58,448 nt of DNA from a virus (IMGVR_UViG_3300037454_000478:1-58448); one strand, 5' to 3'. Counted from the first letter of the stretch, positions 27,027 through 45,081 are shown. Notes: generated from the letters alone by a model not told the origin. Numbers and translations are program-made.

Positions 27027-27419
27027 TTAACAATCCTGCCATCCGGCATTCATATTATTCCTTGTAGCCCTCTTAATAGCGTGTGATTTGTTTATCCAAT
27101 CAGCATCGTAAAGACCGGATGGCCCCTCCACCATTTCAAGGGTCTCGGCATTTTTGAATTTTTTGAAAACATCCGAGATAAACGATTCACTATCCACATA
27201 TTTTGCAACTTCATATCCATTGAATCCGGATTTGCGAGTCATGTTTTTCAGTACAGTACCACTAAACTCAATCAAATTCCCGGAGGAATCTTTCATGACG
27301 AGTGCCACTTGTCCTCGAGAGGTACCGTTATCCCCGGTAAAGTACAAATGATATAAATTTGTATTATTTGAGGCTTCAGCCACAAGGGATTCATTTATAA
27401 AATCCATAAGTGATTTCAT
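27027..27419 (-). CDS. putative internal virion protein (CTS-like N-terminus)
   Basis: Starts MKSLMDFINESLVAEA. Confidence 0.72.
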   Translation of the reverse strand: MKSLMDFINESLVAEASNNTNLYHLYFTGDNGTSRGQVALVMKDSSGNLIEFSGTVLKNMTRKSGFNGYEVAKYVDSESFISDVFKKFKNAETLEMVEGPSGLYDADWINKSHAIKRATRNNMNAGWQDC

Positions 27420-27428
27420 AACGCGTTA

Positions 27429-27755
27429 TTAGTCAATTTTTTGAAGCTCCGTACTCTCCTTGCTATAGACATCACGTTGCTTTATAATGAGTTTATCTCC
27501 GGTTTTTTCGTTCCACAAACCAGTAATTATTGAGTGGGAACCTTTGCTGGTGTACTGCAATTTCCATGCTTGATACGTGACGGAGTATTCAACACACCAT
27601 ACCTGTGCGGCTTTTTGGGAGGTACATATTTCCATGATTTCCGTTGGGAAATGTCCGGACGGATTTGAAGGCTGCATCTCGATCACCCACATAACACGGG
27701 TTGCTTCGTTTATAGAGATATTACCCAAATATTCGGATAAATTTTTCATATTCAT
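27429..27755 (-). CDS. putative internal virion protein (CTS-like N-terminus)
   Basis: Starts (MN)MKNLSEYLGNISINEA. Confidence 0.7.
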   Translation of the reverse strand: MNMKNLSEYLGNISINEATRVMWVIEMQPSNPSGHFPTEIMEICTSQKAAQVWCVEYSVTYQAWKLQYTSKGSHSIITGLWNEKTGDKLIIKQRDVYSKESTELQKID

Positions 27756-27762
27756 TTAGGCT

Positions 27763-29097
27763 TTATTTTCCCAACGGGGCTAACTGGCTATCTTTTGGAA
27801 GGAACTTACCGGTGAGTCCCAAACGTGCTTGGTTCTCCACCCAGTATGGTTGAAGGTCTTCCGGAATATCGCAGCGGGTGCTATCCAGTGTTTTCAAGTA
27901 GATATCATATACATGATTGAGAGTGACCTTATCAACATGGGCACGGAGATACTCCTGAAGTTTGTGGTAGTTGGATAATGTCTTTTCATCAATATTGAAA
28001 TTATACAATTCGTTGAGTTTATCAATGGCTTCTTTCGGATTTGTGGCGACCCATTCAAGAGTTTCCTTGTTTTGGATACCTTTATTGTGTTTGAACATAA
28101 ATCCCTTGGCTGCAAAGAGGTGGAGCATCAATTGGGTACGATGTAACCCCTTAACATTACCCGCATAAGAATCGCTGTAGTATGCGAATTTCAACCAGTC
28201 GATATTGCCAAAATTGGTATCAATCTGCACGGTCTTACCGTTGGGTTTGCCATCCTGACCTATTTGATCGAATAGGCTAAACAATACACCGTTGCCGGAT
28301 GATTTCGAATCGGTAGTAATGAGTTTGGAATTTGCATTGATGTAATCACCAATACCTTTGATAATTGCCCTACGCATAACATCTTGTGGAGTGGCGGTAC
28401 GGGCACGCTTGAGCATAGTATTGTAATCTGCGGAGATTTTTTGTGGATCGAGACCCCAATCCTCCGGATTTTTAAGACCGGCTTCATCGATGGCAATATC
28501 AATATCACCGGAGAAATCCTTTTTACCTACAGAACCGAGGGTAACAGGATTATCCCAATACTGGGCGACTTTTGGGAATAAACGTTTGATTTCAGCCAAC
28601 CATGCATCAAGTGTTGGTTTGATATCCTCCTTTGCGATAGGATCAGAACCTTCTCCAAACACATGGCCACCTTCATTGAGGTTGGTAACTTCACAACAGG
28701 TCTTAACGTTAAGTATACGACCTTCGGTGAGGTTCATGTTGATCGTAGGAGTGACACGGCCCACCAAATAGGTACGATCATTATCACGTTCGAGACCATG
28801 AACCCATATGCTTTCACCAACCATCATATTGTTCAACGCTTCATTGAGGGAAGTGGTTTCAAAAGCAACCTCAAAGAATCCCTCTGTAAGCTCTTCGGGG
28901 ATCAAACGTTCATTAAGGCCGAAAACAGTGTTATGGGTATCGTAATGTTCAACAAAATTGCTGACAAATTCTTTAAGCTCGGCCATCTTATTGTTGGATT
29001 CCATGATTTGTTGAATCGTGGATTTTTGCTGGGTATAACCAATACCCTGACCGGCACGATTACGGTTCATTAGGTGGAAAGCGAGATAGTTATTCAT
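27763..29097 (-). CDS. Pol-beta-superfamily nucleotidyltransferase with N-terminal extension
   Basis: LGSVGKKDFSGDIDIAID and VQID; N-terminal region has several L/I-x-E sites. Confidence 0.75.
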   Translation of the reverse strand: MNNYLAFHLMNRNRAGQGIGYTQQKSTIQQIMESNNKMAELKEFVSNFVEHYDTHNTVFGLNERLIPEELTEGFFEVAFETTSLNEALNNMMVGESIWVHGLERDNDRTYLVGRVTPTINMNLTEGRILNVKTCCEVTNLNEGGHVFGEGSDPIAKEDIKPTLDAWLAEIKRLFPKVAQYWDNPVTLGSVGKKDFSGDIDIAIDEAGLKNPEDWGLDPQKISADYNTMLKRARTATPQDVMRRAIIKGIGDYINANSKLITTDSKSSGNGVLFSLFDQIGQDGKPNGKTVQIDTNFGNIDWLKFAYYSDSYAGNVKGLHRTQLMLHLFAAKGFMFKHNKGIQNKETLEWVATNPKEAIDKLNELYNFNIDEKTLSNYHKLQEYLRAHVDKVTLNHVYDIYLKTLDSTRCDIPEDLQPYWVENQARLGLTGKFLPKDSQLAPLGK

Positions 29098-29102
29098 ATA
29101 TA

Positions 29103-29840
29103 TTATGTTCTCTTTTTCTTGTTATAATTACTTGAATTCTTTGAACGCAACTCATTTATGATGATATTTTCAATGCGGCTACCACAGGTTGTTACAGCAC
29201 CATAATCAACCATGTCCTCATTTGCATACATGAACATCATGGTACCTGCACATATTCCATCAATGGTTATGTTGTAAAATACAATATATTGCGTATGCTC
29301 GTTTGGGTGAATCCTGCCCAACATACCCGGGTCAATCGCAAACGCGTCCTCCAGCGATATAGAGGTCATCTTGTGGTTCATTACGGCATCCGTAAGCAAC
29401 ATATCCCATTTCCATATTGTTTCGTCCTTGAAATCTTCGACCGGTAATACTGGAACGGTGTCGCTACGAACACTGATGGATACATCGAATTTGCAGTATT
29501 GATATCCGGTTGAAATGTTTTCGCTACCGTTATGGTAATCCAAAAACAGAATGTAATCTGCATTTGTACGTGGTCGTTCCGCTCTCATCATTGATTTTAC
29601 CGAGGAGTACAAATCGCGGGACTCCATCCAAAGATTTTGGTGAATTTCAAATTGTTCGACTTTATCGTCTTGGATTTCCTGTCCTACACCACGGATTATT
29701 CTATCCGCATAACCGGTTAAAAAGGAAATCATTATAATAACAAGGGCGACAGATACAAAAGTGCGGTAAACCCCCTCTTTACTCACTTTCTTGGACATCC
29801 AATCCACAAGATTTTTAAAAAACTCAACTAATTGATGCAT
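29103..29840 (-). CDS. single-TM protein with predicted periplasmic domain, possible T4 gpT-type holin
   Basis: One TM segment (FVSVALVIIMISFL) followed by a soluble domain with YHNG; role inferred from topology. Confidence 0.5.
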   Translation of the reverse strand: MHQLVEFFKNLVDWMSKKVSKEGVYRTFVSVALVIIMISFLTGYADRIIRGVGQEIQDDKVEQFEIHQNLWMESRDLYSSVKSMMRAERPRTNADYILFLDYHNGSENISTGYQYCKFDVSISVRSDTVPVLPVEDFKDETIWKWDMLLTDAVMNHKMTSISLEDAFAIDPGMLGRIHPNEHTQYIVFYNITIDGICAGTMMFMYANEDMVDYGAVTTCGSRIENIIINELRSKNSSNYNKKKRT

Positions 29841-30007
29841 GTTTTTCGTTTTTTTCCTTCATTGTTTTTGTTGATAAAATAATAAGTGAATTTTTTGGTA
29901 ACCAAAAACCACCAAAAAACCATATATGTATAATACGAAAATAAGTTTCATAAATTCATATATTGTTAATAGGAGTAATCCAAGGCTCAAAAGAAACATG
30001 ATATCAT

Positions 30008-30607
30008 ATGTCAAAACTCATAACGGTCGAAAAGGTACTCGGTGTAGATCAATCCATTAACTGCACCGGAGTATGTCTCCACACAATAGAAACAGACCAT
30101 TCCGGAAAAAAACCTCAAGAGTTCCATTCGTATCAATATTGGTTGATCCCGGCAAATACCAAATGCACAAAGAAAATGGCGGCTTTCAGTAATCCATGGA
30201 TCACCATCGATCCGTATAAGAAAATGGAAGGTGAGGATTATTCCGGTAAAGAAGCGGCGAAGACCATGAATATTTATGCGATTTGTGACATTATCGAATC
30301 CATAATTCAAACGGAAAAACCGGATACATTGGTCATGGAAGGTATCTCATACGGTAGCCGTGGTAGTGCATCATTGGTGGATCTTGCTGGTCTCAATTAT
30401 TGCATCCGTATGATGGCCATCCGCCGGGGTCTCGGTATGGTTATTGTATCACCAACCAGCCTTAAAACCCGGGCTACCGGTAACGGAGGAGCTGAAAAGG
30501 AGGAAATGGTATGGGCATGGAAGCAATGCGACAAAAATATAGCGAATGTAAAGGAAATCAAAATTGATGACCTTGCTGATGCATTCTTTTTAAGTAATTG
30601 TCAATAA
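30008..30607 (+). CDS. ruvC: RuvC-like Holliday junction resolvase
   Basis: VLGVDQSINCTG, VMEG, DDLADAF catalytic acidic set. Confidence 0.85.
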   Translation: MSKLITVEKVLGVDQSINCTGVCLHTIETDHSGKKPQEFHSYQYWLIPANTKCTKKMAAFSNPWITIDPYKKMEGEDYSGKEAAKTMNIYAICDIIESIIQTEKPDTLVMEGISYGSRGSASLVDLAGLNYCIRMMAIRRGLGMVIVSPTSLKTRATGNGGAEKEEMVWAWKQCDKNIANVKEIKIDDLADAFFLSNCQ

Positions 30608-30622
30608 ATAAATTATATTCAT

Positions 30623-31600
30623 ATGGGAGACGAAAACACAAAAGGGATAACCACAGTTAATGGTGGCTCCCCAAAATTAGGCCCGGGTTCAAATATACAT
30701 GGTGAACAATGTTGGCCCGGCCCACAAGGTCAACCAGGGAAAGTTGATCCCGATTTTGATTATACAAAATTATCGAAGTTCCGTTGTGTACTCGTTGGCA
30801 ATAAGCAATATGATCAACTTGTTGATGGAAACTTATATCTTGTATATCGTAAACATGAGCAAACCGGCGAACCAACATATTCATTATGTACGTATGAAAA
30901 TGGATGTTGGATCCCTTACGGTATCATCGAATCAGTCAAGAGACTACCGTGGTTTACCGGTGTACCTGTCGATGATACGGATTACTGGATTGGTGTGAAT
31001 GAATTGTTCCAAAACATCGATAATCCCGAGGAACCGGAAGAACCTGAAAAACAAAATCCCGAAGAGGAATCCGAGAAAAAGGAAACCGTCCAAGAATACG
31101 TCCAGCGCCGTCTCGATGAAATTGATAAAGAGGAAACGGAGCGAGCCCGTCAGGCCAAAGAAGATGAAATGAAACGAGAAATGGCCGGCGAATTTATACC
31201 GAGGGGTATGCCTATAACTCCAAGTCCGGAAAGCCAAGGTATTAGAGCCCTTGATAGAAAGTTTGAGGTATTGATGGAGTTCATCCAAAAAATGTACGAT
31301 GAGATAATCGATGATCCGGTAATCGAAAAGAATTGGGAACACATCAAGACGCTTACGAATGATATGCTTGATCGCATCAGTGAACTTGAAGAAAAAGCGA
31401 AAAATCAGCCATTCATTCCGTTCCCATGTATTCCGGTTGAACCTATATCGCCGATAACACCCGGCTATCCAAACCCTAATCCATCTGTACCCGGATATCC
31501 GTTTGGCCCGATCATCACCTATAGTGTTCCCGGCCAAGGCCCAATGTGTTCATTTACATCCACGCCATCGGTTGGATTTGGTGTACCCGGTAAGAAATGA
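30623..31600 (+). CDS. hypothetical protein with E/K-rich middle and Pro-rich C-terminus
   Basis: EEPEEPEKQNPEEESEKKE; PIS PIT PGY PNP NPS VPG YPF. Confidence 0.72.
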   Translation: MGDENTKGITTVNGGSPKLGPGSNIHGEQCWPGPQGQPGKVDPDFDYTKLSKFRCVLVGNKQYDQLVDGNLYLVYRKHEQTGEPTYSLCTYENGCWIPYGIIESVKRLPWFTGVPVDDTDYWIGVNELFQNIDNPEEPEEPEKQNPEEESEKKETVQEYVQRRLDEIDKEETERARQAKEDEMKREMAGEFIPRGMPITPSPESQGIRALDRKFEVLMEFIQKMYDEIIDDPVIEKNWEHIKTLTNDMLDRISELEEKAKNQPFIPFPCIPVEPISPITPGYPNPNPSVPGYPFGPIITYSVPGQGPMCSFTSTPSVGFGVPGKK

Positions 31601-31708
31601 CCTGTTACATACATTTTTTGTGGGTAACCGGTAATTTATGACCTGTTATATATAAAAAAGGCATAACTATTATTAATTAGGAAAACGCACAAATAAACTT
31701 TTTTAGTT

Positions 31709-32065
31709 ATGAGTCTTCAAACATTTTTAGTGTACTTTGGTACATTTGCTGCATTCGTAGCCGGTGTAACTACTTTTACGGAGTTCTTCAAGAACCTTTT
31801 TAAGGTCACCAAGAAGGGTTGGATGATCGCTATTGCATGGATCCTCGCTATCGCCGGTTCCGTGGCTGGTTTCTACTTCCAACTTGGTTTCTTCGCTGAA
31901 TATGGTACTCCTGACATGTGGCAAGGATGGTTAATGACTGGTCTTACCGGTATTGGTGCAGGTATTGCTGCTAACGGTCTCTACGACCAAGACGCCATCG
32001 AATCAATTGTGAAGTGGATTTGGTCGTTCATGAAACCAAAGCAATCACAGATCATCAACGAGTAA
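31709..32065 (+). CDS. putative holin (3 TM)
   Basis: Three hydrophobic helices; GIGAGIAANGLYD end resembles phage holins. Confidence 0.6.
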   Translation: MSLQTFLVYFGTFAAFVAGVTTFTEFFKNLFKVTKKGWMIAIAWILAIAGSVAGFYFQLGFFAEYGTPDMWQGWLMTGLTGIGAGIAANGLYDQDAIESIVKWIWSFMKPKQSQIINE

Positions 32066-32089
32066 CCAGCGGCAACACATCAAAAAAAG

Positions 32090-32120
32090 AAAAGACCATC
32101 GGGAAACCGGTGGTTTTTTA
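32090..32120 (+). terminator. intrinsic terminator
   Basis: AAGACCATCGG-GAAA-CCGGTGGTTTT followed by T. Confidence 0.7.
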
Positions 32121-32170
32121 TTTTGTTGTATTTTGTTGTATTTTATAGAAAAAGTACATCGCGAGCGAAT

Positions 32171-32542
32171 ATGAAATCACTACATGAATATCTTGATGAA
32201 TCGGTCACAGAATCCAAAGCAACATTTACCGCAAAAGAAATGGATAAAATCTGCAAAGATCAATCCAACATCAAAAAGATTGCCAATGAAATTGGCGTAC
32301 CCGAGGATTTTGTAAAGGATGTTTTGGGATACATTTCTGCAATTTGTCATGATACGGAAAAATATGCAGGTATCACCAACCAATCGAAAGAAGAATTTAT
32401 CGATTATCTCAAGGATGAGGATGAATTTGTTGAGAATTGCATGGGAGAATATGATATCTATAACACATGGGGGAAGAAAATTGACCTTGAGGATAAACTT
32501 GCAAAACTTGGAAACTATTTTGCTGATACTTTCCTCCAGTAA
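32171..32542 (+). CDS. putative internal virion protein (CTS-like N-terminus)
   Basis: Likely start MKSLHEYLDESVTES at 32171. Confidence 0.7.
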   Translation: MKSLHEYLDESVTESKATFTAKEMDKICKDQSNIKKIANEIGVPEDFVKDVLGYISAICHDTEKYAGITNQSKEEFIDYLKDEDEFVENCMGEYDIYNTWGKKIDLEDKLAKLGNYFADTFLQ

Positions 32543-32567
32543 ACATTGTTAGATAAGTAATTCGGAT

Positions 32568-32613
32568 AAAATGGGTGGGATCGTGTTAAGATTCCGCCCA
32601 TTTTCTTTATCTA
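32568..32613 (+). promoter_or_regulatory. promoter-like motif embedded in a terminator-like hairpin
   Basis: GTTAAG 32585-N17-TATCTA; stem AAAATGGGTGGGA/TTCCGCCCATTTT. Confidence 0.7.
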
Positions 32614-32640
32614 TAAATGTAAAACTTAAACATCTAAATC

Positions 32641-33213
32641 ATGACAAGAAACGAAGCCCTGGATAAAATCCGCAAAGTGTACGAACTGGCCAACCGTGGT
32701 GTTGGTGGCGAAAAGGATGCTGCTAAAGCTCGCTTGGATGAGCTCATGAAGAAATATGGTATCACGTTAGAGGAACTCGATAGCGAGGCTGAAACTGTCC
32801 ATTATTACCACCTCCACGGAAATAGCAATCACGAGATTTTTGCGCAGGTATCTGCCACTCGTGGATGTACGCATTTCGTATTTGTTGGACCACATGATAA
32901 CACCAAGGCATCAAAACAACTCAAGGGCATGCTGCACGATAAACCACATGGTGCAAATGTAGCGTTCGTGTGTTCGCCAATTAAGTTTGTGGAGATCACA
33001 ACCGCCTACGAGGTTTATCAGCGTTCTTTCGATGAACATTTTGAATCCTTCTTCTATGCATTTCTTGCGGAAAATGATCTATTCTACGGCACCGCCGATA
33101 AAAATAGGGAGATTACCGAGAAGGAACGCCGCATGCTCAATCGTGCACAAATGATGATGCTTGGAATCGAAAGAGCAGAGGTTCACAAACAACTGCAGGA
33201 GAAAAACGAATAA
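32641..33213 (+). CDS. DUF2786-domain protein
   Basis: KIRKVYELANRGVGGEKDAAKARLDELMKKYGI. Confidence 0.8.
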   Translation: MTRNEALDKIRKVYELANRGVGGEKDAAKARLDELMKKYGITLEELDSEAETVHYYHLHGNSNHEIFAQVSATRGCTHFVFVGPHDNTKASKQLKGMLHDKPHGANVAFVCSPIKFVEITTAYEVYQRSFDEHFESFFYAFLAENDLFYGTADKNREITEKERRMLNRAQMMMLGIERAEVHKQLQEKNE

Positions 33214-33237
33214 AAAAGGCCCTCGAGAGGGCCTTTT
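33212..33237. terminator. bidirectional intrinsic terminator
   Basis: AAAAGGCCCT-CGAG-AGGGCCTTTT between convergent genes. Confidence 0.85.
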
Positions 33238-33257
33238 GTTTTTATAGTTATTGACGT

Positions 33258-33620
33258 TTACTTGTTGTCCTGCATATTCTGCCGGTTTTTTAGATTCCAA
33301 GTTAAATCCCAAGCGTTGAATGTGCAGAACACGATAACACTGCCTCCCGGATCCAATTCGGAAGCCTTGTATTCGGTCTGCAACTCCTTGATTGATTTTG
33401 TTGTTGAGAAACCAAAGATCGATTTCATGGTCTTATCAACCCAATTCAATACCTTTTCATCATCGGTGAGTACATGGACATGATATACGGTTGGTCTCGT
33501 CCGGAAGCATGCTAACTTAACCACATTTTCGAGATGGGCGGCTTTGACACATTTTGTGAATTTAGCCGTTTTTGCGGACGATTCAGCCGATTCGATAATA
33601 TATTCAAATAGTGTCTTCAT
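33258..33620 (-). CDS. putative internal virion protein (CTS-like N-terminus)
   Basis: Starts MKTLFEYIIESAES. Confidence 0.72.
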   Translation of the reverse strand: MKTLFEYIIESAESSAKTAKFTKCVKAAHLENVVKLACFRTRPTVYHVHVLTDDEKVLNWVDKTMKSIFGFSTTKSIKELQTEYKASELDPGGSVIVFCTFNAWDLTWNLKNRQNMQDNK

Positions 33621-34108
33621 TACTTTAACGATTCAGTTACCACAAGGTTGGCTTGGGCTTCCGCCTCGTCTTTTTGTTTATAAAGGGCGGCAAGTTCTGC
33701 TTCTTTACCTTCGATAGCCTTCAATAGGCCCGGAAGACGAGTGTTACCAAGATTATTGACGTATTGTTGGATGGCCTCTTTTGATGTACCAATGTAGAAA
33801 TCTTCGCCATATTCACGAAGGCTTATTACTTGACAACGATCATCACTATAATCGATCGTTGAAAAATGGTGTTGACCGTAACTTTCAAGACCGTATTTAT
33901 TTGAGGAAAGTTTGATTTCTGCAACGAAACTTTTGTTACCTCCTCCATACATTTTTGTGCGGATGATTTCAGTAACACTGGCCGGAACAGCAACCGAATC
34001 ACCAAACTTTAGGATATATACGGTAGAACCTTTGCGTGGAAGGTGTGCATTCTTTGCGGCGGCTTCCGTAATAAGATTTTCCGAAATGTGTTCTTGTAAT
34101 GTTTTCAT
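33620..34108 (-). CDS. putative internal virion protein (CTS-like N-terminus)
   Basis: Starts MKTLQEHISENLITEA; ends LVVTESLK. Confidence 0.72.
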   Translation of the reverse strand: MKTLQEHISENLITEAAAKNAHLPRKGSTVYILKFGDSVAVPASVTEIIRTKMYGGGNKSFVAEIKLSSNKYGLESYGQHHFSTIDYSDDRCQVISLREYGEDFYIGTSKEAIQQYVNNLGNTRLPGLLKAIEGKEAELAALYKQKDEAEAQANLVVTESLK

Positions 34109-34140
34109 AATTATTTGATGTAAATTTTTTCACAAAATAT

Positions 34141-34659
34141 TTATTTAATATCCTTTACTGGTTCCTTACTTGTCATACCATTGCTACGCATGATATGTTT
34201 ACCGGAAACATTTTCGATATCAAGACCATGTTGGGCATCCACCATCTTTGGAAGGTTATCGTATGTGAGGGTAAGTTTTTTGTTTTTGTCAATGTAGGAC
34301 ATTTGTCCACCTTTTCCATCACTAAACATTTGATAACCACCAAATTCAAGTTTTTCAAGATTTACGTTTTTACGGATTGAACAAAACATATTATCGCCGG
34401 ATCCACCGATGATCTCCACGAGTTTATTACATTGGATGACATCTATACGGATTGTCTTACATTGACATCCGGTAAAATCGATGACTTCAACTTTGGTATC
34501 CTTATCAATATACACTTCCGCATAATCGGCTTGGCCTGTTACAACGATTTTCTTTGCATTACCCGAGTATATATTTTTACCGTTTTTAATCTCAAACGTG
34601 GTTTCCTGTTCAACCGCCTCGTTTAATTGCTCCGTGATATATTCCACTAATGTTTTCAT
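34141..34659 (-). CDS. putative internal virion protein, possible LRR/beta-solenoid
   Basis: Starts MKTLVEYITEQLNEA; repeated hydrophobic-strand/Cys/Asn pattern. Confidence 0.7.
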   Translation of the reverse strand: MKTLVEYITEQLNEAVEQETTFEIKNGKNIYSGNAKKIVVTGQADYAEVYIDKDTKVEVIDFTGCQCKTIRIDVIQCNKLVEIIGGSGDNMFCSIRKNVNLEKLEFGGYQMFSDGKGGQMSYIDKNKKLTLTYDNLPKMVDAQHGLDIENVSGKHIMRSNGMTSKEPVKDIK

Positions 34660-34680
34660 CGTATTTGAATCCGATATTTT

Positions 34681-35121
34681 TTATTGGAGTTTATCAAGCA
34701 TATCAGCAAATAATGCGAGCTTTTCCTTATCGCACATGATTACACTTATTGCCAAGTCACCGGAGCGATCATTATTGAATTTGCCGGTAACATCCTTGTC
34801 ATCAATTTTGATGTATGCAAATGGATTGGCAAAGAAACTGTTGAATATGAATTCAATCACGTGGTTATTGAGTTCATATAAAATGGAGTATCTCTTTGCA
34901 TCTATACGGGAGTAACCCATCTTTATATCTTCCGTTCTAACCTCCCGGAACTTAATAGGGAGTTTCCACATCAAATCAATCATGAGGTAATCACTCAAAC
35001 CCTTGAAATATTCCAGGGTGTTATATCCATACCTCTGTTTGATTTCTTGGTTAAACTGCTTCCAGTTGGTTACCTTCTGTTTACGGCCTTCAGTGATGAT
35101 ATAATCTATGAGTGATTTCAT
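34681..35121 (-). CDS. putative internal virion protein (CTS-like N-terminus)
   Basis: Starts MKSLIDYIITEG. Confidence 0.72.
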   Translation of the reverse strand: MKSLIDYIITEGRKQKVTNWKQFNQEIKQRYGYNTLEYFKGLSDYLMIDLMWKLPIKFREVRTEDIKMGYSRIDAKRYSILYELNNHVIEFIFNSFFANPFAYIKIDDKDVTGKFNNDRSGDLAISVIMCDKEKLALFADMLDKLQ

Positions 35122-35456
35122 ATATTAAGGTCTTTTTTATTTAATTTAACCACCTTGTTACAAGATATTTGTTCAAGGTATTGGGATGAATCTTCTTCAG
35201 TCTCACCCAAATTAGGATTGGCCGACCATAACTGGCAGAATTTTCCACGTTTCTTGGTATATACACCAATACGAAGGCCATTTTCGGAGAAAACCAACAC
35301 CGGATCACCTTGCTGAAGTGGCTGTCCCAAACAATCCGCTCCACCATCAGTGGTATTGTATTGATGGTCTTTCAAAGACTTTGCAATTTCGAATGGTGTA
35401 AGGTCTTCGTTTATGTTGAATGTACCTTCATTAAGATATTCCTGTAAGGGTTTCAT
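35118..35456 (-). CDS. putative internal virion protein with SH3/KOW-like domain
   Basis: Starts MKPLQEYLNEG; DCLGQPLQQGDPVLV. Confidence 0.72.
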   Translation of the reverse strand: MKPLQEYLNEGTFNINEDLTPFEIAKSLKDHQYNTTDGGADCLGQPLQQGDPVLVFSENGLRIGVYTKKRGKFCQLWSANPNLGETEEDSSQYLEQISCNKVVKLNKKDLNI

Positions 35457-35457: not shown

Positions 35458-37146
35458 TTAGATGATCTTTAATTTATCAATTTCCTGTGTAAGGATATGG
35501 GTTTGATATGGCGATACAAGGTATCCAAGCCAAGCCATCATCTCACGGTTGAGAAGTACGTTGGATGATTTACCGTCACGGTTTTCCACAAGGGCCATCG
35601 GTACATCGTTGAGTTTACGAAGTCCGAGCTTGATGGATTTAATATGGATGATCGGACGGTTATTCTTTTGGGTTCCGGTTACAGCCTTGCTGTATCCATA
35701 AATCTTTTCCGTATACTTCTTACCATTGAAGGTAAATGTTACGTTTTCGCCATTTGTTTCCATATTACCAACCTCCATGTGGGAAGCTATAGCACCGTTT
35801 CCGGTATCGAGTTTGGCAAGGAGTGAAAGTGGCTTACCGTCACCGATTGTGATATCCACAGTTTCCATATATCCGGCGGTTTTATCCTGTAGATAGAACT
35901 CTTTAGGTTCATCCAATTCATTCAATAGGATGTTAATGAAGTTATGCTTGATGACCTCCGAGATACCATCGGTACCCGGGCTGGCATTCAATTCAAGAAC
36001 CACATTATCTCCGATTTCCGGATTGGAACCCTTTACAAGCGGCATAATATCCACGGCACACCATGGAAGGTGGGAGATCTTTGCGGCCTTGAGGGCGATC
36101 TGCTCCTGTTCCGGGGTGAGTTTCACCGGCTCGGCTTCCGCACCCAGGGATACGTTGGAACGGAAATCACCACCAATCTTAACACGTTTCATGGCAGCAA
36201 GTATAAGCTGACGGTCGCGAAGGGTAAGCACATGGACACGGATATCACCTCCATCGGCCTCCTCCTTCTTTTGTATAATGAGCTGACGTTCTTCATCAAT
36301 GGCGAATATTGCCTGAAGGATGGCTATGAGTTTCTTTCCGTCACAGGTGAATACACCGGTACCACCATGGCCATCAAGAATCTTAACCACCAAGTCAAAT
36401 TCCTCATTTTTATCAGAATCCTTGTCCCATTTTGGATATACCTGTTTCATGTTCTCCATGAATAGTTTTTCATCATAGAGAATATCCTTGGTCATCAGGC
36501 AGAAATTCGGTTGAGGAATCTCGGCTTTTTGAAGGAGAACCGCGGTATCGTATTTGTTGGATGCAAGTTCCGAATAACGAACCGGATTCAACACAAGGAA
36601 ACCACGATCCTGAAGCATACCAACCACATGTTCGCAGTTGTCCTCACCTTGAACTCCGAGACGGGAGAATACCAAGGTATTGGTGTTGTTGAGGTCTTCG
36701 AAATCCAACGTGTTATCACCATCGGTAATCGAGAGGATGTTATCATCATCCGTATCGAATGTCATATTTTCCGCGATAAATACGTGAACTTTTGGAGTAA
36801 CTGCGGAGGTTTTCTTCAATGCTGCAACTGCATCGTAAAGGTTTTTGAGGGTCTTGTTGTTTTTCGGGTCATCATCGTTTGTGAAAATAATGATGTGCTC
36901 AAAAATATTGGTCAATTCCTTATCAAGATCCGCATATTTTACTTCAAGTTCATCATTTGGATTGTTTGGATTGCCTTTTTCGTCATCCTTGTTGGCGGGT
37001 TTATCTTTGCCTTCGGTTTCCTCCTCTTCCGGTTTCTTCTTTGACTCATCAAGTTTCGCGCGGGAAGCTTCATTTACGGATTCAACCAAACGGCGAGCTT
37101 CATCCTCATCCTTAATTTGATCGTAACGTATTTCGTTAATGTCCAT
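35458..37146 (-). CDS. rimK: RimK-like ATP-grasp ligase fused to a C-terminal retropepsin-like (RimK/LysX-associated) protease domain
   Basis: SNKY, VVKILDGHGGTGV, GDIRVHV, DFRSNVSLG, AVDI, VLELNASPG; C-terminal AKLDTGN. Confidence 0.85.
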   Translation of the reverse strand: MDINEIRYDQIKDEDEARRLVESVNEASRAKLDESKKKPEEEETEGKDKPANKDDEKGNPNNPNDELEVKYADLDKELTNIFEHIIIFTNDDDPKNNKTLKNLYDAVAALKKTSAVTPKVHVFIAENMTFDTDDDNILSITDGDNTLDFEDLNNTNTLVFSRLGVQGEDNCEHVVGMLQDRGFLVLNPVRYSELASNKYDTAVLLQKAEIPQPNFCLMTKDILYDEKLFMENMKQVYPKWDKDSDKNEEFDLVVKILDGHGGTGVFTCDGKKLIAILQAIFAIDEERQLIIQKKEEADGGDIRVHVLTLRDRQLILAAMKRVKIGGDFRSNVSLGAEAEPVKLTPEQEQIALKAAKISHLPWCAVDIMPLVKGSNPEIGDNVVLELNASPGTDGISEVIKHNFINILLNELDEPKEFYLQDKTAGYMETVDITIGDGKPLSLLAKLDTGNGAIASHMEVGNMETNGENVTFTFNGKKYTEKIYGYSKAVTGTQKNNRPIIHIKSIKLGLRKLNDVPMALVENRDGKSSNVLLNREMMAWLGYLVSPYQTHILTQEIDKLKII

Positions 37147-37211
37147 ATATAAATTATGTCTTTTATTCCGTAGTTAAATAATAAAAAAATTCATCACAAA
37201 TCAAAAAGCAA

Positions 37212-39051: not shown

Positions 39052-39075
39052 GATTCCCGATGGTTTGTTTATATA
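39032..39075 (+). promoter_or_regulatory. promoter-like motif embedded in a terminator-like hairpin
   Basis: GTTAAG 39047-N17-TATATA 39070; stem AAACCAT-CGGGA/TCCCG-ATGGTTT. Confidence 0.72.
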
Positions 39076-39101
39076 TAGACGTAAACAGGAAAGGAATATA
39101 T

Positions 39102-39347
39102 ATGAACGCACTTGGAAATAACCTCTTTAACGAACTCAAAAACGCCGGTTGGAATGTTGATGGAACGTTCGCATTCATTGAGAAGGCTGATTACACTATG
39201 ACGGCCGTTTGGAGAGAATATATGGACGGTACCTCCGCGGATATCCACGTGTCCAAATCATCCAATCATGCCGGACAGAGTGAAAAACACATATCCACCG
39301 AAGGAAAAACTGTGAAGGGCCTGATGAAGGAAATTGAAAAATTATAA
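39102..39347 (+). CDS. hypothetical protein
   Basis: Start MNALGN preceded by AGGAAAGGA. Confidence 0.7.
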   Translation: MNALGNNLFNELKNAGWNVDGTFAFIEKADYTMTAVWREYMDGTSADIHVSKSSNHAGQSEKHISTEGKTVKGLMKEIEKL

Positions 39348-39361
39348 ATAAGTACAACAAT

Positions 39362-39781
39362 ATGATCTCTTTAGAAACATTTATCGAAAAATACAACGAA
39401 CGTATCGGTTGGAACAAGGAACTTCGGAGCACCATGAACATTGATGTTCTTGAGGGTAATCCGGCAACCAAGCGTATACTCGGCGACTATTTGAGTGACT
39501 TCGAAATCCGGCCGGAGGATTATGAGCCGGAAACCGCCAAGATCTATAAGTATGAGGAAAGCAATACTTACGAACTTCAAATCTATAGCTTCGAGTCATA
39601 CCACACGGTCTACTTTTGGTGCGATCCGGATATCACAAAGGATGAATATATCAAGGAAAGGGTGTCCATTATATCCCGGGAGGCCAAAACACAACTTGAG
39701 GAAACTCAAGATAAAATAAAGGAACTTGAAGGCATTGCCACAAGCATGAATATACTATTACAGGACATTAACAGGAAATAA
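39362..39781 (+). CDS. hypothetical protein
   Basis: 139 aa; coiled-coil C-terminus. Confidence 0.7.
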   Translation: MISLETFIEKYNERIGWNKELRSTMNIDVLEGNPATKRILGDYLSDFEIRPEDYEPETAKIYKYEESNTYELQIYSFESYHTVYFWCDPDITKDEYIKERVSIISREAKTQLEETQDKIKELEGIATSMNILLQDINRK

Positions 39782-39782
39782 T

Positions 39783-40049
39783 ATGTTGTTTAATCGTTTC
39801 GATATTAGCGAGCAGGCACTTCCAAAAAGCAAACGTTCGGAACGCGTCACCATTGAGATGAGCCGTTACGACCTCGAGATCATTATGAGATCTCTTGAAG
39901 AGTCATACTTTAGTGAATTAAGCAAAACACCTTGGATCAACCTGACTCCGGACACATATCCCCCGCAGTACGGTTACAAGGGTAACAACATCACCAACCG
40001 TCTAAAAAGCACACTTGCATACATTAAAAGACAACTCTTAAAGGATTAA
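39783..40049 (+). CDS. hypothetical protein
   Basis: 88 aa ORF in operon position. Confidence 0.65.
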   Translation: MLFNRFDISEQALPKSKRSERVTIEMSRYDLEIIMRSLEESYFSELSKTPWINLTPDTYPPQYGYKGNNITNRLKSTLAYIKRQLLKD

Positions 40050-40054
40050 ATATC

Positions 40055-40669
40055 ATGGTAACACTTAACGAAATCAAAGGATTATCGAATATCCATAACA
40101 TCCCAAAGGAAATCCATTGCAACGAAAACGTTGTCCTCGATCCGTTCCTTTCGGATAACTTATCGGATACACCAAAAACATGCACGTATGATTTTGATGT
40201 ATTTCTTGAGAAATATGGCGTCAATCTTCAACGCCCATATGTGTGGAATCTGATCCAGCAGCAGGAGTTTATCCTTTCAATCCTTTTGGATAAGCCAATT
40301 CCCCCGGTGGTGGTGGTTGATATCGATTCACCGTATAATGAAGGCAAACTTCGCCGTACTTTGGTTATTGACGGCAAACAACGCCTGATGACCATCAAGC
40401 GTTTCCTGAACAATGAGTTTGCCGTAATAATCAATGACCACCCGGCATACTTCAAGGATTTTGATGTTGATGCCCATTGGTTCTTCATTCGTCAAATCCA
40501 GTACCTCACGGCAACCACGTACTACGCCTCGGATGATAGCCGAGATAAGTGGTACCTCTCGGACGACATGAAAATCATCCTGTTTAACTTCTATAACTTT
40601 GCCGGTACCCCACAGGAGGAGACCCATAAGGAAATGTTACAAGATTTTCTCAACAAAAACGAAATTTAA
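40055..40669 (+). CDS. DUF262 (GmrS N-terminal, ParB-like) domain protein
   Basis: LQRPYVWN, FILSILL..PIP, VIDGKQRLMTI. Confidence 0.85.
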   Translation: MVTLNEIKGLSNIHNIPKEIHCNENVVLDPFLSDNLSDTPKTCTYDFDVFLEKYGVNLQRPYVWNLIQQQEFILSILLDKPIPPVVVVDIDSPYNEGKLRRTLVIDGKQRLMTIKRFLNNEFAVIINDHPAYFKDFDVDAHWFFIRQIQYLTATTYYASDDSRDKWYLSDDMKIILFNFYNFAGTPQEETHKEMLQDFLNKNEI

Positions 40670-40670
40670 C

Positions 40671-41003
40671 ATGGATTACAGTAAGATAAAGGAAAGAATC
40701 AGCGAACTCAATAAAGAAATCTTCGAGTTACGTTCGGAGGCCCTTATTGACTACGTGAAGACTCATGGTGAAAAGATGAACCACTTTGTGGATACCCTCA
40801 TCCTGAAGGTTACCGATTTTGAGATCAATATAAGTGCCGATCCATCATGGGATGTTGTAATTGATGAACTCTATGTGAATAAGGCCGGAAAACTATGCTT
40901 CCGCGTATACAACGAGTCGGATAATAGCATCCACATCGATCGTGAGTTCAAACCAAGTGACTCATCAATCATGGAGATATTTTTCAGTTATTTATGTAAA
41001 TAA
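40671..41003 (+). CDS. hypothetical protein
   Basis: Start MDYSKI directly after the upstream stop. Confidence 0.65.
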   Translation: MDYSKIKERISELNKEIFELRSEALIDYVKTHGEKMNHFVDTLILKVTDFEINISADPSWDVVIDELYVNKAGKLCFRVYNESDNSIHIDREFKPSDSSIMEIFFSYLCK

Positions 41004-41012
41004 GTATGCCCT

Positions 41013-41279
41013 ATGACATTCAATGAAGCAATAGAACACCTTATGAATGGGCAAAAAGTCCGTTCCGTATTATGGCACCCATGCTATTACATCGAAATCG
41101 ATAACGACAAGGAATCCTGTTATAAAATTATCAGGGAGGTGTACAACGATATTGACAGGAAATACCGTGAAATAACCAAGGAAACCCTCGATTATAAGGC
41201 ATATTTCAGCCTGAAGGATATCTCCAGTGAATGGGAAATCTATTCGGACAATCTCATGCCTTTGAGAAATAAAAACTAA
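41013..41279 (+). CDS. hypothetical protein (DUF2829-like start)
   Basis: MTFNEAIEHLMNGQKVRSVLW. Confidence 0.65.
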   Translation: MTFNEAIEHLMNGQKVRSVLWHPCYYIEIDNDKESCYKIIREVYNDIDRKYREITKETLDYKAYFSLKDISSEWEIYSDNLMPLRNKN

Positions 41280-41283
41280 CACT

Positions 41284-41640
41284 ATGGCCAAATTTTCAGT
41301 AGAATATACAATCCACTTGGGTGATAAGGTATCCTTCATAGTTCACCGCGATGGATACGAGTACGTACAATTCGGTATTGTTCAGGATATATCACAGATA
41401 CCGGATATATTCGTTGAAGGAATTGATAATGAGACTCGCCGATATACTCGTTGGAAAAGGGATATCATGAATCTCGATATGATCGACTCCAAGTATGACG
41501 ATGCCGGAAAGACCTATAAAACCGAATTTGAGAAAGATGAGGAGGTTGAGTTTGTCCATAAAGGTGACTTGGGTACTCCGGAGTTCGATGAAATCGAATA
41601 CGTCAAACATCCGATAAACCCGAGTAATCTCATGGGATAA
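41284..41640 (+). CDS. hypothetical protein
   Basis: 118 aa ORF. Confidence 0.65.
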   Translation: MAKFSVEYTIHLGDKVSFIVHRDGYEYVQFGIVQDISQIPDIFVEGIDNETRRYTRWKRDIMNLDMIDSKYDDAGKTYKTEFEKDEEVEFVHKGDLGTPEFDEIEYVKHPINPSNLMG

Positions 41641-41674
41641 AATACTGTATTTAACCGCGAAAATCTTCGCCCTA

Positions 41675-41744
41675 ATAAAGGATCTCGCCGACCCCTTCAT
41701 AACTATAAGGAGCCGGCGAGATCTCGCTTTATATCGCAAATATG
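41675..41744. repeat. palindromic intergenic element, copy B
   Basis: GATCTCGCCG / CGGCGAGATC arms, central ATAACTATA, tail TTTATATCGCAAATATG; between convergent genes. Confidence 0.7.
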
Positions 41745-41785
41745 CGTGTTTTATAATGTAATTGTACGTGTGTTTTCAAAGGATT

Positions 41786-42307
41786 TTAGAATCCACGGGG
41801 AAGACACTTATGTAGGTTTTTTGGATCGGCCTTGATTTTTGCAAGGCGTTTTTCCATATCCTTACGGGAGCCAAACCCACTATATTCGTTAGTCACGTGA
41901 ACTTTGAAACCTTTTGTATCTTTACCGGCACCATCTTTAATCACATCAATGATGAAATCCTTAACATTGTCATCCAAAAACCGATCGGATTTAACATGCT
42001 CGATCTCTAACTTAACTGCATCGCCGTAACTTGCACCATCGACAAGTTGATGAGCAATAACATTAAGGACAGAGTGTGCAAGCGACCTGTAGTCACTGTC
42101 TTCCGGGTTATCCTTGTATTTAGATTTGAGGTCGTTTATAACGGCATCAAACATACGGGGGCCGGATGATGTACCAAGTTCAAGCATACTATATCCGAGT
42201 AGACGATCCGAGGTAAAACTACGTCTTATGATGAGTTTATCCTCCTCCGACCAATCGGATATATCCGTATACTTTTCGTTAACGAGATATTCGTATAGTG
42301 ATTTCAT
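41786..42307 (-). CDS. putative internal virion protein (CTS-like N-terminus)
   Basis: Starts MKSLYEYLVNE. Confidence 0.72.
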   Translation of the reverse strand: MKSLYEYLVNEKYTDISDWSEEDKLIIRRSFTSDRLLGYSMLELGTSSGPRMFDAVINDLKSKYKDNPEDSDYRSLAHSVLNVIAHQLVDGASYGDAVKLEIEHVKSDRFLDDNVKDFIIDVIKDGAGKDTKGFKVHVTNEYSGFGSRKDMEKRLAKIKADPKNLHKCLPRGF

Positions 42308-42309
42308 GG

Positions 42310-42537
42310 TTAATTAAGACTTGTTTTGTTATCGCGGCGATTTCCGGATTCGTCACTTGAATATCCGAACCATTTTCTACCATCGGATTCGATTTCTATG
42401 ACGATTCTCTTTTCGTTCTTATTTTTCATATCTGTTATGAAGTCCAAAAGTTTGTCATAATCAATCTCTTTCATGTTCAAAACAAGAGATTTCTTTACTC
42501 CCAAGGCTTCATTGATGCTTTCCGTAAGTGAAACCAT
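42310..42537 (-). CDS. putative internal virion protein (degenerate CTS-like N-terminus)
   Basis: Starts MVSLTESINEA. Confidence 0.65.
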   Translation of the reverse strand: MVSLTESINEALGVKKSLVLNMKEIDYDKLLDFITDMKNKNEKRIVIEIESDGRKWFGYSSDESGNRRDNKTSLN

Positions 42538-42554
42538 ATTTGTATAATGTTTAT

Positions 42555-43187
42555 TTATTCTTCTTTTGAAAAACGATTCTTGATCGGATCATAATAACCC
42601 CAATTCATATCGCGGGTTTGGGCGGACATTTGCTTGGCAAGATCCATATATAACGGATCGCCCTGTGGAATACCAACCGGAACTTCCACGGTAATCGGCC
42701 GGGTGGATACCCATGAGATCTCATTATCCGACTTGTATACCGGAGTCTCGATATTGATGGAGAGTTTGGCCACACCATCCGGCTTGTCCTTATCAAAGTA
42801 CTTTTCCGGTTCGTTGACATGCACCTTGAATGTGAAACGGGCAAGCAATCCGGCATACCATTTATCGGATACCACCACCACTGCCTTATAGTTACGCGAA
42901 TCTTGTTGATAATCAATGTCTTTAACCTTTGCAAGTGTAAAGGAACCATCCTTGGCGGAAATATAGTTTCCGAAGTACATTTCAACAAAATCCGATATAC
43001 GGCGGCGGCGATCCACCTTGGTCATATTGGTACCAACCAACGCATTGATAAGCGGACGGATATAATGGTTTCCGGTTAGCTCACCATTGTAATACTCCGG
43101 TGTGGATACCTTTTGGCGCCATGTGGAAAGTGGCCCGGTGGATATCGGTTTAAGGGATTCGTTTATATATTCCAATAGTGGTCTCAT
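42555..43187 (-). CDS. putative internal virion protein (CTS-like N-terminus)
   Basis: Starts MRPLLEYINES. Confidence 0.72.
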   Translation of the reverse strand: MRPLLEYINESLKPISTGPLSTWRQKVSTPEYYNGELTGNHYIRPLINALVGTNMTKVDRRRRISDFVEMYFGNYISAKDGSFTLAKVKDIDYQQDSRNYKAVVVVSDKWYAGLLARFTFKVHVNEPEKYFDKDKPDGVAKLSINIETPVYKSDNEISWVSTRPITVEVPVGIPQGDPLYMDLAKQMSAQTRDMNWGYYDPIKNRFSKEE

Positions 43188-43198
43188 ATGCGGATCAT

Positions 43199-43570
43199 TT
43201 AATTATCACGGAGATGCGAGATTATGGCGCGAATCACCGTGGCAATAACTTCGATCTTCGATTGTTTACCGCTGTGGGCAAGACTATATGCGGCAACGAT
43301 ATCCTTTGGTGTGAGGTTGATATCCTTTAACCAACCGGTGACATAATCGAAGTAATCGTCAACACGATCCTTATATTCACCGTTCCAAAAAAGTTGTTCG
43401 ATTTCCTCAAAGGTAGGAATCGTATTGTGGCCGGGTAGATACCTTTCGATATCCTGAATGCGTTCACGGTCGTCAATCAAAAGACCTTTATATAATTCGG
43501 CACTCTTTTTGGAAGTAAGCCAGCCTTTTGGCCCGGCAACTTCATTGATGTATTCTTCAAGTGATTTCAT
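43199..43570 (-). CDS. putative internal virion protein (CTS-like N-terminus)
   Basis: Starts MKSLEEYINEVA. Confidence 0.72.
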   Translation of the reverse strand: MKSLEEYINEVAGPKGWLTSKKSAELYKGLLIDDRERIQDIERYLPGHNTIPTFEEIEQLFWNGEYKDRVDDYFDYVTGWLKDINLTPKDIVAAYSLAHSGKQSKIEVIATVIRAIISHLRDN

Positions 43571-43571
43571 A

Positions 43572-43814
43572 TTAATAGATTAAATCGTTAATTTCTTCAA
43601 GTATTTTATCGATACAATTGATGCATCTTTCTTGAAATTTTGGATCATCGGATTTATGTTGTTCCATTCCGGATTTTACACCTTTTATAAATTCCGAAAG
43701 AATGTTTCCACAGAAGTCTGCACCCCACTCCCCGATCCAAGCCTTTCCGTAGTTAGCAATATCCTTGAATTTTGTCTTTGATTCCTCAATAATGCATTCT
43801 TGTAGTGATTTCAT
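43572..43814 (-). CDS. putative internal virion protein (CTS-like N-terminus)
   Basis: Likely start MKSLQECIIEES at 43814. Confidence 0.7.
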   Translation of the reverse strand: MKSLQECIIEESKTKFKDIANYGKAWIGEWGADFCGNILSEFIKGVKSGMEQHKSDDPKFQERCINCIDKILEEINDLIY

Positions 43815-43831
43815 ATTGTATATGGTTTTAT

Positions 43832-44086
43832 TTAACGGATAATCTCCCATTCCTCCTCGGAAAGGTTGTATCTGTATTCGTCATCATCGGCAAATGCCAC
43901 GAAATCTTTCTTGAACGTGATGTTGGTTGGTGGAGTATCGGAATCATCAAGGATGTCAAGAGCCTTGTATGCTTGTTTGAGGGTGATCTTCCAAGCTTTC
44001 ACCATGGCATCGGCGTCTTTCGGGCCGTATGTGCCATTGCCGGATTTCCACATTGATTCATTTATGTATTCCTGTAATGTTTTCAT
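43832..44086 (-). CDS. putative internal virion protein (CTS-like N-terminus)
   Basis: Likely start MKTLQEYINES at 44086. Confidence 0.7.
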   Translation of the reverse strand: MKTLQEYINESMWKSGNGTYGPKDADAMVKAWKITLKQAYKALDILDDSDTPPTNITFKKDFVAFADDDEYRYNLSEEEWEIIR

Positions 44087-44099
44087 ATTGCGTGTAATT

Positions 44100-44510
44100 T
44101 TATTTATCGAATATCCATTCTTTCGTGTTCGGATCAAACCAAATGCTTTTATAGAAGCCGAAGTCATGTCCGTTACTGCCACTCTTATGGGCGTAGTTCC
44201 AAGTGAATTTAGGGTCGAACCAAATCTTACCGTCCTTGGTGAATTTACCACCCCAAGTCTCAAAACGGACATCATCAAACATTACACCCCAAAGACCATC
44301 CTTGAGCTGTGGAAGGAGATTGTCGGATTCAATGGCAATCTTTTGAGGCATTACAATTACATTAAGCTTGAGGTTACGGATACCGATAACACTGCCAATT
44401 GCATCCTCAAGTTCCTTGATGCATTCTCTTGCGATCTTACCGGCTTCTTTGTAATCATCCGGCTTATGATCACCTTCGTTGATATTTATATATTCCATTA
44501 ATGGTTTCAT
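44100..44510 (-). CDS. putative internal virion protein (CTS-like N-terminus)
   Basis: Starts MKPLMEYININEG. Confidence 0.72.
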   Translation of the reverse strand: MKPLMEYININEGDHKPDDYKEAGKIARECIKELEDAIGSVIGIRNLKLNVIVMPQKIAIESDNLLPQLKDGLWGVMFDDVRFETWGGKFTKDGKIWFDPKFTWNYAHKSGSNGHDFGFYKSIWFDPNTKEWIFDK

Positions 44511-44553
44511 AGTGTTAAAATATTTTTAATACCACGTGTTTTTCGATTTCGGT

Positions 44554-45081
44554 TTACATGAATTCATCAATGATATTCCAAATGTATGGTCTATCAATGG
44601 ATACAATACCGAAGAAACCGCTTGATTTAACCCCAAAATACATGGATGGATTTTCAATGAATGATAATTGTTGTTTCTTTAGCTTCAATGCATCCGCCAC
44701 CTTGAAACGGAATACCTTTACGGTATATACATGATCATTATTACCCATCTTAACCTGTCCACGTTGTGGGAATCCATCCGATGTGAACTCATACTCATCA
44801 ATCTGTTTACCACCCAAGGCTTTAATAAATGAATCCACCGGGGTTTTTGAAGTTGCACCCTTAAATTTCATAAACGAATATGTGTTGTGGACATTAAATG
44901 GAATTATCATGGATGAATAACGTCCAATTTCGTTGTCGAAATCCGTGGATTTATCATTATTGATGAACTGGAAGATGATACCAACTCCCTTGCTATCGCA
45001 TTTTGCATTTTCAATACGATTCATGAACTCCTCATAATGAGAATCACTTGCTTCAGATATGTAATCAAATAGGGATTTCAT
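44554..45081 (-). CDS. putative internal virion protein (CTS-like N-terminus)
   Basis: Starts MKSLFDYISEAS. Confidence 0.72.
   Translation of the reverse strand: MKSLFDYISEASDSHYEEFMNRIENAKCDSKGVGIIFQFINNDKSTDFDNEIGRYSSMIIPFNVHNTYSFMKFKGATSKTPVDSFIKALGGKQIDEYEFTSDGFPQRGQVKMGNNDHVYTVKVFRFKVADALKLKKQQLSFIENPSMYFGVKSSGFFGIVSIDRPYIWNIIDEFM

Follow-up and report, generated by a model that had tools for sequence, protein, structure and literature searches.

A T4-like leader peptide on some thirty otherwise unrelated proteins of an uncultivated phage: a candidate capsid-targeting tag

Why would a phage open a whole series of otherwise unrelated genes with almost the same ten-residue peptide? The question is raised by the viral stretch IMGVR_UViG_3300037454_000478:1-58448 (the window), which, at 42% G+C, is the first 58,448 nucleotides (nt) of a 152,037-nt IMG/VR record with a CheckV completeness of about 68%. 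In this window, a sequence-only reading had listed 17 open reading frames (ORFs) with such a leader, and had likened it to the capsid-targeting sequence (CTS) of T4 internal proteins. The answer that we favour, with a probability of about 0.7, is that the peptide is a T4-type capsid-targeting and processing tag carried by an unusually large, enzyme-rich protein set. Since some 30 unrelated genes of the record are tagged, the set of proteins that this phage packs and injects is probably unusually large. Variable CTS-tagged cargo is already published for T-even phages; what is new here is the scale, the host lineage and the internal and C-terminal use of the tag, which we found described in no paper.

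When ORF coordinates and translations were re-read, all 17 ORF starts and leader peptides proved correct, and most of these ORFs do lie in three minus-strand arrays (27027-27755, 33258-35456 and 41786-45081, with two, five and eight genes, respectively), the single tagged ORFs outside them starting at 32171 and 57622 on the plus strand. An 18th tagged ORF in the window, absent from the earlier list, has its leader MRSLFDYIVE at 54873 on the minus strand, 76 codons into an ORF that opens with DUF3008. The remaining part of the record holds about 12 further tagged genes, including a sigma-70-family gene starting with MKLFTEIIAE, so that the whole-record total is ~30, or roughly one in seven predicted genes. 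Four of these are weak members, those at 57622, 59912, 62246 and 27749, the last of which (MKNLSEYLG) is without Glu at position 10. The proteins are indeed otherwise dissimilar, as had been claimed: the 30 mature parts gave no mutual blastp match at E <= 0.01. Nearly all tagged proteins were without a family in Pfam and PHROGs, and megablast of the 27-46 kb region against the phage collection gave no match.

The leader consensus is MK[ST]LxE[YF]IxE, followed by S, A or G. That it is a distinct motif was upheld by a six-frame profile scan of the whole record with a position matrix, which gave 31 matches at or above 12 bits versus a shuffle mean of 0.8 (maximum 3), 26 of the 31 being ORF starts. 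Because this matrix was trained on the same genome, a T4-only pattern (M-K-x-x-x-[DE]-[FY]-I-x-E) was also used as an independent check; it matched 10 ORF starts in the record, none in the reversed control and three in T4 (ipII, ipIII and the hypothetical gp61.1). A chance origin of the leader is excluded.

A different possibility is that conservation resides in the nucleic acid, as a translation-initiation region or a recombination site for cassette shuffling, the peptide being a by-product. Some leaders do hardly differ in DNA (24 of 25 bases agree between the copies at 52602 and 42307), the second codon is commonly AAA, and fusion forms in which the tag stands between DUF5856 and a further domain suggest exchange at the tag. 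However, synonymous codons vary freely, with Leu4 encoded by TTA, CTA, CTT, TTG or CTC, Ile8 by three codons and Tyr7 by two, while the DNA upstream of the leaders, which is A+T-rich, is not alignable and has no common sequence. In addition, the peptide is kept in homologues only 22-46% identical, and at C-terminal and internal sites where its Met has been replaced (31 of 69 DUF5856 homologues). Selection acts on the peptide, not on the DNA, and the codon data largely refute this alternative, which we regard as highly improbable.

The leader of T4 ipII and ipIII was verified as MKTYQEFIAE, and the proposed likeness holds, M1, K2, T/S3, E6, an aromatic residue at position 7, I8 and E10 being common to both. 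In T4, ten N-terminal residues of IPIII are enough for packaging (PMC9026906, reviewing Black's work) and the CTS is removed by the prohead protease gp21 (Mullaney & Black 1996, as reviewed in PMC9026906 and PMC3012670), with genetics assigning residues 4 and 7 to targeting and residues 8 and 10 to gp21 processing (PMC9026906). Positions 4, 7, 8 and 10 are among the best conserved in the leaders of this phage. T-even internal proteins are a diverse set with only the CTS in common (PMC3012670), and here too otherwise unrelated, fast-evolving proteins begin with a roughly ten-residue peptide whose Glu is followed by a small residue, in a phage that has head genes of the gp23, gp20 and gp17 types and variable gene arrays. 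The differences are those of scale (~30 tagged genes in 152 kb versus three internal proteins in T4), of position 4 (Leu here, Tyr/Phe in T4) and of cargo, which here includes enzyme-sized proteins (a sigma factor, a kinase-like and a phosphatase-like protein).

The 22 leaders with Glu10 all have Ile or Leu at position 8, and 15 of them have S, A or G at position 11, a composition that fits a gp21-type processing site with Ile/Leu as putative P3, Glu as P1 and a small residue as P1'. This suggests a mechanism in which (i) the leader would form a short amphipathic helix (Leu4, Tyr/Phe7, Ile/Leu8 and often Leu12) that docks cargo on the scaffolding core during prohead assembly, (ii) the prohead protease would cut after Glu10 at the gp21-type site (Ile/Leu-x-Glu, then Ser/Ala/Gly), freeing cargo inside the shell and (iii) the cargo would remain in the head with the DNA, and exit with it at infection. 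Docking, cleavage after Glu, packaging and injection, as well as any anti-defence role, are what we infer.

The head genes are of T4 type. The gp23-like major capsid protein shares 31-36% identity with its counterparts in PAU, pT24 and a metagenomic phage, and also matches T4-like cyanophage records (there was no sequence match to solved structures). The portal (genome 138124-140073, numbered as in the 152,037-nt record) matches T4 gp20 and the large terminase (genome 125803-127800) matches T4 gp17, and a 245-kb relative carries Portal_T4, Phage_T4_gp2 and Terminase_6N in the same order as in this phage. The N-terminal region of the capsid protein contains two [LI]-x-E sites, ALITE/E and AIHE/G (the slash marks the putative cut), the first of which aligns with KLNE/S in PAU, QITE/S in PTm1 and LLRE/S in T4 gp24, an alignment that an [LI]-x-E protease specificity in this clade would fit.

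Phage PAU (JQ362498; Sphingomonas (Sphingobacterium) phage) offers a close parallel, since it combines a homologous capsid protein (31% identity), a gp21-family protease and arrays of small unrelated genes with a common leader. PAU gp151, like PTm1 ORF300, aligns with T4 gp21 and carries PF03420 (Peptidase_S77). In the PAU head-gene region, 15 of the 37 genes read open with MKT[LI]xxL[YF]E; among them are the gene annotated as scaffold (gp152), two annotated as 'internal capsid proteins' (gp142 and gp154) and the pair of small genes that immediately precede the protease; in the head module, leaders are present on gp131-133, gp142-146, gp149, gp150 and gp152-154. Unlike in our record, the PAU consensus has its Glu at position 9, followed by [AS], and the portal, protease, scaffold and capsid genes lie amid the tagged ones. 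We found no description of the PAU leaders in the literature. Protease-scaffold fusions occur on 204- and 210-kb contigs, where they adjoin homologues of its genes. The giant phages phiKZ, 201phi2-1 and SPN3US also package and eject many head-internal proteins that a gp21-related protease cuts after Glu, but their propeptides are 80-130 residues long and have an A/S/G-x-E motif with no common decapeptide (PMC5694885, PMC7411985). Outside T4 and these giant-phage propeptides, no such leaders were found described in the literature.

The leader is not confined to these phages. Its exact DNA pattern occurs in at least 120 IMG/VR stretches versus ~2 by chance (a rough estimate assuming uniform composition), and in the stretches that were fetched 75 of 79 matrix matches lie at ORF 5' ends, with S, G or A after the Glu in 58%. 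A T4 core gene is also present in 24 of 80 short IMG/VR stretches. This spread together with T4 core genes on viral contigs indicates that the leader is a feature of the T4 superfamily as a whole; this phage is unusual in how often it uses it. Leaders are also stable within families: at least 25 of 36 representative homologues (22-60% identity) of the 359-residue tagged protein start with a leader of the same pattern, and a relative with a 62%-identical DUF5856 protein keeps leaders on its sigma gene (MKLFTEILKE, then S) and on the neighbour of that gene.

When would the tagged genes be expressed? A promoter-like motif, TTATTATWWA, is present in 13 copies in the record versus 5.2 expected; for 11 of them the next start is no more than 50 nt downstream, and for the other two the distance is 62 and 171 nt. 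It precedes the portal gene, the capsid gene, the terminase operon (where the copy directly precedes a tagged 320-residue gene), seven N-tagged genes or arrays and two C-tagged enzymes, as well as 419- and 791-residue genes with no family match whose homologues adjoin the protease gene on a related contig. Given that 14.5% of all genes are tagged, the position of seven among the 13 copies before such genes would be about a one-in-a-thousand event by our own binomial estimate. This distribution supports expression of the tagged genes together with the structural genes, and TTATTATWWA may be a late promoter. A second motif, GTTAAB-N17-TATATA, is found in 28 copies versus 1.1 expected, all on the plus strand, most 20-36 nt upstream of a plus-strand start and none directly before a tagged gene (0 of 28). 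Its spacing is that of a sigma-70-type -35/-10 pair, unlike the Bacteroidetes TAnnTTTG, and host-type promoters of the latter kind showed no enrichment before starts. The phage's own sigma factor may be what recognises the GTTAAB-N17-TATATA sites.

These data also bear on the idea that the peptide is a regulatory or instability signal, such as a timed-proteolysis site limiting proteins to a window of the infection cycle, and plays no part in the virion. Such a signal might well look like this one, a short conserved peptide at the end of proteins with unrelated functions that includes a conserved acidic cleavage-like site, but the phylogenetic association with T4-type head genes, the tag on the PAU scaffold and the promoter motif common to tagged and structural genes all argue for something else. 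We know of no degron with the pattern of the leader, and consider this explanation very unlikely.

The tag is not always at the N-terminus. Two enzyme-like proteins and a DUF5856 protein, which is predicted to be a Dps-like helical bundle and whose T4 homologue is rI.-1, end in a copy of it, which in one of the enzyme-like proteins is degenerate. In 69 of the 72 DUF5856 homologues that keep the last core helix, the peptide is found 2-11 residues further on, with strong conservation of unforced positions ([KR]2, [SP]3, [DE]6, S11 and L12). It is not the start of a small ORF, since only 38 of the 69 keep the Met, and in 17 homologues a further variable domain lies beyond the tag. In the AlphaFold model (predicted local distance difference test, pLDDT, 84.6), residue 122 is the last of the bundle, disorder spans residues 120-126 and the tag forms a helix of its own, modelled with low confidence; the predicted fold resembles Dps proteins with template-modelling (TM) scores of 0.55-0.65 and weak E-values. 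As for the DUF3008-tag ORF, most homologues begin directly at the tag, and one has DUF3008 in front, as here. Conserved N-terminal, internal and C-terminal copies indicate that the tag behaves as a portable linear motif, which in fusion proteins would be an inter-domain cleavage site. By way of mechanism only, this is reminiscent of encapsulins, in which cargo enters an HK97-fold shell by way of a short peptide at its terminus, set behind a flexible linker, and of which ferritin-like proteins are typical cargo, much as a Dps-like protein carries the C-terminal tag here. Unlike in encapsulins, the shell would be the phage capsid, and the peptide sequence is unrelated to their GSL-type loading peptide; no encapsulin shell gene was annotated or seen near 1707-2132.

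The capsid operon encodes, besides the nucleotidyltransferase-like protein with the degenerate C-terminal tag (26090-27010), a second and larger Pol-beta-type nucleotidyltransferase-like protein (27763-29097, minus strand) with a tag-like MAELKEFVSNFVE 38 residues in; the two show weak mutual similarity (E = 4e-4).

Several observations weigh against a capsid-targeting role and have to be set beside the evidence above. Conserved C-terminal and inter-domain copies are a departure from the T4 CTS. The classic T4 internal proteins are basic, and the mature parts in this phage are mostly acidic or neutral (pI, the isoelectric point, is below 7 in 19 of 30). The pattern alone is not fully specific, since T4 gp61.1, whose presence in the T4 virion has to our knowledge not been reported, also matches it. 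This 54-residue hypothetical protein, encoded next to the primase gene (NC_000866 18966-19130, minus strand), starts with MKTFKEFIKE. One tagged gene lies inside the baseplate block (genome 106530-107291) and another directly upstream of the large terminase, in the place of T4's small terminase. A six-frame search of the 152-kb record with PF03420 found no gp21-type protease, and head proteins of PAU and PTm1, used as tblastn queries, matched the portal but neither a protease nor a scaffold gene. Finally, the literature yielded no virion proteomics for this phage, PAU, PTm1 or MA9V-1.

A T4/PAU/PTm1 protease profile gave a best E-value of 0.6 in the record, a homologue search with the three-protease alignment was dominated by T-even gp21 and did not reveal the protease of this clade, and a search limited to fused forms returned only more distant relatives. 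Extending past the 5' end of the record by means of a relative with a 93%-identical DUF5856 protein added 8.4 kb and one more tagged gene, with no protease. However, because the record is only ~68% complete and relatives reach 245 kb, the absence of protease and scaffold is one of the fragment, not of the phage; judging from the syntenic 245-kb relative, about 95 kb are missing. Both the record (genome 151175-152037) and the 245-kb relative (ENA contig ERZ27298379:k141_847296, 245,397 nt, at its start) end a few kb past the sigma operon, near a collagen-like gene with G-x-y repeats, which is either an assembly break at a repeat or a physical genome end.

The same observations could be read as evidence that the tag docks on, or is processed by, some late-made partner other than the prohead core (for instance a chaperone, a factor in the assembly of tail or baseplate, or the RimK-like protein encoded in the window), without packaging. 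A tag that is portable between N-terminal, internal and C-terminal positions and is modelled as a separate low-confidence helix behind a disordered linker would suit such a partner, as would a RimK-like gene co-oriented with and directly upstream of five tagged genes, tagged genes beside baseplate and terminase genes, and a record in which protease and scaffold genes were not found. Against this, the leader matches the experimentally defined T4 sequence where it matters (PMC9026906), the PAU tag is on the annotated scaffold and on head-module genes, and the invariant Glu with a small residue after it is what a gp21-type site would have. Moreover, the analysis identified no other partner, and the RimK-like protein gave no family match for its C-terminal part. 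We judge a partner other than the prohead core to be rather unlikely, and retain the capsid-targeting and processing tag as our preferred reading.

If proteins with this tag are packaged, what are they? The few mature domains for which there is a lead look like host-takeover enzymes, namely the sigma-70-family factor, a protein with a kinase-like predicted fold (TM scores of 0.42-0.49 to Pkinase-family clusters) and one that is HAD or polynucleotide-kinase-phosphatase-like; the 359-residue protein (a 349-residue domain after the tag) gives a weak restriction-endonuclease-like lead. Two more tagged genes lie just downstream of the sigma gene, in the same orientation. A bolder version of the capsid-targeting reading, which we put forward as speculative and consider unlikely, would be that the tag is a position-independent label loading at least ~30 proteins including the sigma factor, that the injected sigma directs the core RNA polymerase of the host, from time zero, to the 28 GTTAAB-N17-TATATA promoters of plus-strand genes, and that DUF5856-tag-X and DUF3008-tag-X are small polyproteins cut at the tag by the head protease. 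An injected sigma factor would, if true, do by means of sigma what virion RNA polymerases do in N4, phiKZ and crAss-like phages.

The features discussed are collected in Table 1. Among the untagged neighbours, the RimK-like ATP-grasp protein has a 190-residue acidic N-terminal extension and a 150-residue C-terminal part with LDTGNGA, reminiscent of retropepsin-like peptidases, for which Pfam gave no match.

Table 1. Tagged ORFs, related genes and promoter-like motifs. Positions are those of the window, or of the 152,037-nt record where marked 'genome'; aa, amino acids; 'matrix' and 'T4 pattern' denote matches to the position matrix and the T4-derived pattern.
Feature	Coordinates	Strand	Remarks
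DUF5856 protein, Dps-like helical bundle (predicted), C-terminal tag ...GG-MRPLFDYIKE then SFFTEE	1707..2132	-	promoter-like motif 2170-2179
Major capsid protein, gp23-like, 610 aa	24047..25879	-	homology to PAU, pT24, metagenomic phage
TTATTATWWA promoter-like motif	26050..26059	-	171 nt upstream of capsid gene
Pol-beta-type nucleotidyltransferase-like protein, degenerate C-terminal tag ...C-MEPLSTYLLE then AFNNMPL	26090..27010	-	capsid operon
Tagged ORF, 130 aa, MKSLMDFINE then S	27027..27419	-	major capsid protein operon; matrix, 27.3 bits
Weakly tagged ORF, 106 aa, MKNLSEYLG	27429..27749	-	no Glu at position 10
Tagged ORF, 123 aa, MKSLHEYLDE then S	32171..32542	+	matrix
Tagged ORF, 120 aa, MKTLFEYIIE then S	33258..33620	-	array 2; matrix and T4 pattern
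Tagged ORF, 162 aa, MKTLQEHISE then N	33620..34108	-	array 2; matrix
Tagged ORF, 172 aa, MKTLVEYITE then Q	34141..34659	-	array 2; matrix and T4 pattern
Tagged ORF, 146 aa, MKSLIDYIITE then G	34681..35121	-	array 2; Glu at position 11
Tagged ORF, 112 aa, MKPLQEYLNE then G	35118..35456	-	array 2; matrix
RimK-like ATP-grasp protein, 562 aa, untagged	35458..37146	-	heads operon of five array-2 tagged genes; promoter-like motif 37175-37184
Tagged ORF, 173 aa, MKSLYEYLVNE then K	41786..42307	-	array 3; matrix
Tagged ORF, 75 aa, MVSLTESINE then A	42310..42537	-	array 3; matrix
Tagged ORF, 210 aa, MRPLLEYINE then S	42555..43187	-	array 3; matrix
Tagged ORF, 123 aa, MKSLEEYINE then V	43199..43570	-	array 3; matrix and T4 pattern
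Tagged ORF, 80 aa from leader Met, MKSLQECIIE then E	43572..43814	-	array 3; matrix
Tagged ORF, 84 aa from leader Met, MKTLQEYINE then S	43832..44086	-	array 3; matrix and T4 pattern
Tagged ORF, 136 aa, MKPLMEYININE then G	44100..44510	-	array 3; matrix
Tagged ORF, 175 aa, MKSLFDYISE then A	44554..45081	-	heads array 3; promoter-like motif 45103-45112; matrix and T4 pattern
Cytidylyltransferase-like enzyme ending in tag copy (...ARP-MKSLYEYLMMK)	52026..52637	+	promoter-like motif 51990-51999
DUF3008 (residues 3-56), tag MRSLFDYIVE then A, then 349-aa domain	53794..55047	-	tag at 54873
Weakly tagged ORF, 204 aa, MKDLRTHLYE then D	57622..58236	+	promoter-like motif 57589-57598
TTATTATWWA, other window copies	2170, 37175, 45103	-	
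TTATTATWWA, other window copies	51990, 57589	+	
GTTAAB-N17-TATATA sites, e.g. 7508, 8345, 9038, 10556, 17897, 21391, 56949	7508-56977 (window part)	+	
Tagged protein, 253 aa, Gly-rich loop, protein-kinase-like predicted fold	genome 106530-107291	-	directly downstream of baseplate wedge gene
Sigma-70-family factor, 479 aa, MKLFTEIIAE then S	genome 143628-145067	-	phrog_351, Sigma70_r2

If the tag acts as in T4, the proteins injected by this phage, and by many uncultivated T4-related phages, could be read from the genome, which would provide a short list of the proteins that act before any phage gene is expressed. A search for anti-defence and host-takeover factors in Bacteroidales phages, which are poor in genetic tools, would then naturally begin with the tagged set. 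That conserved copies of the tag also occur internally and at C-termini suggests a loading module of more general use than work on T4 has shown, which might also be relevant to phage protein delivery.

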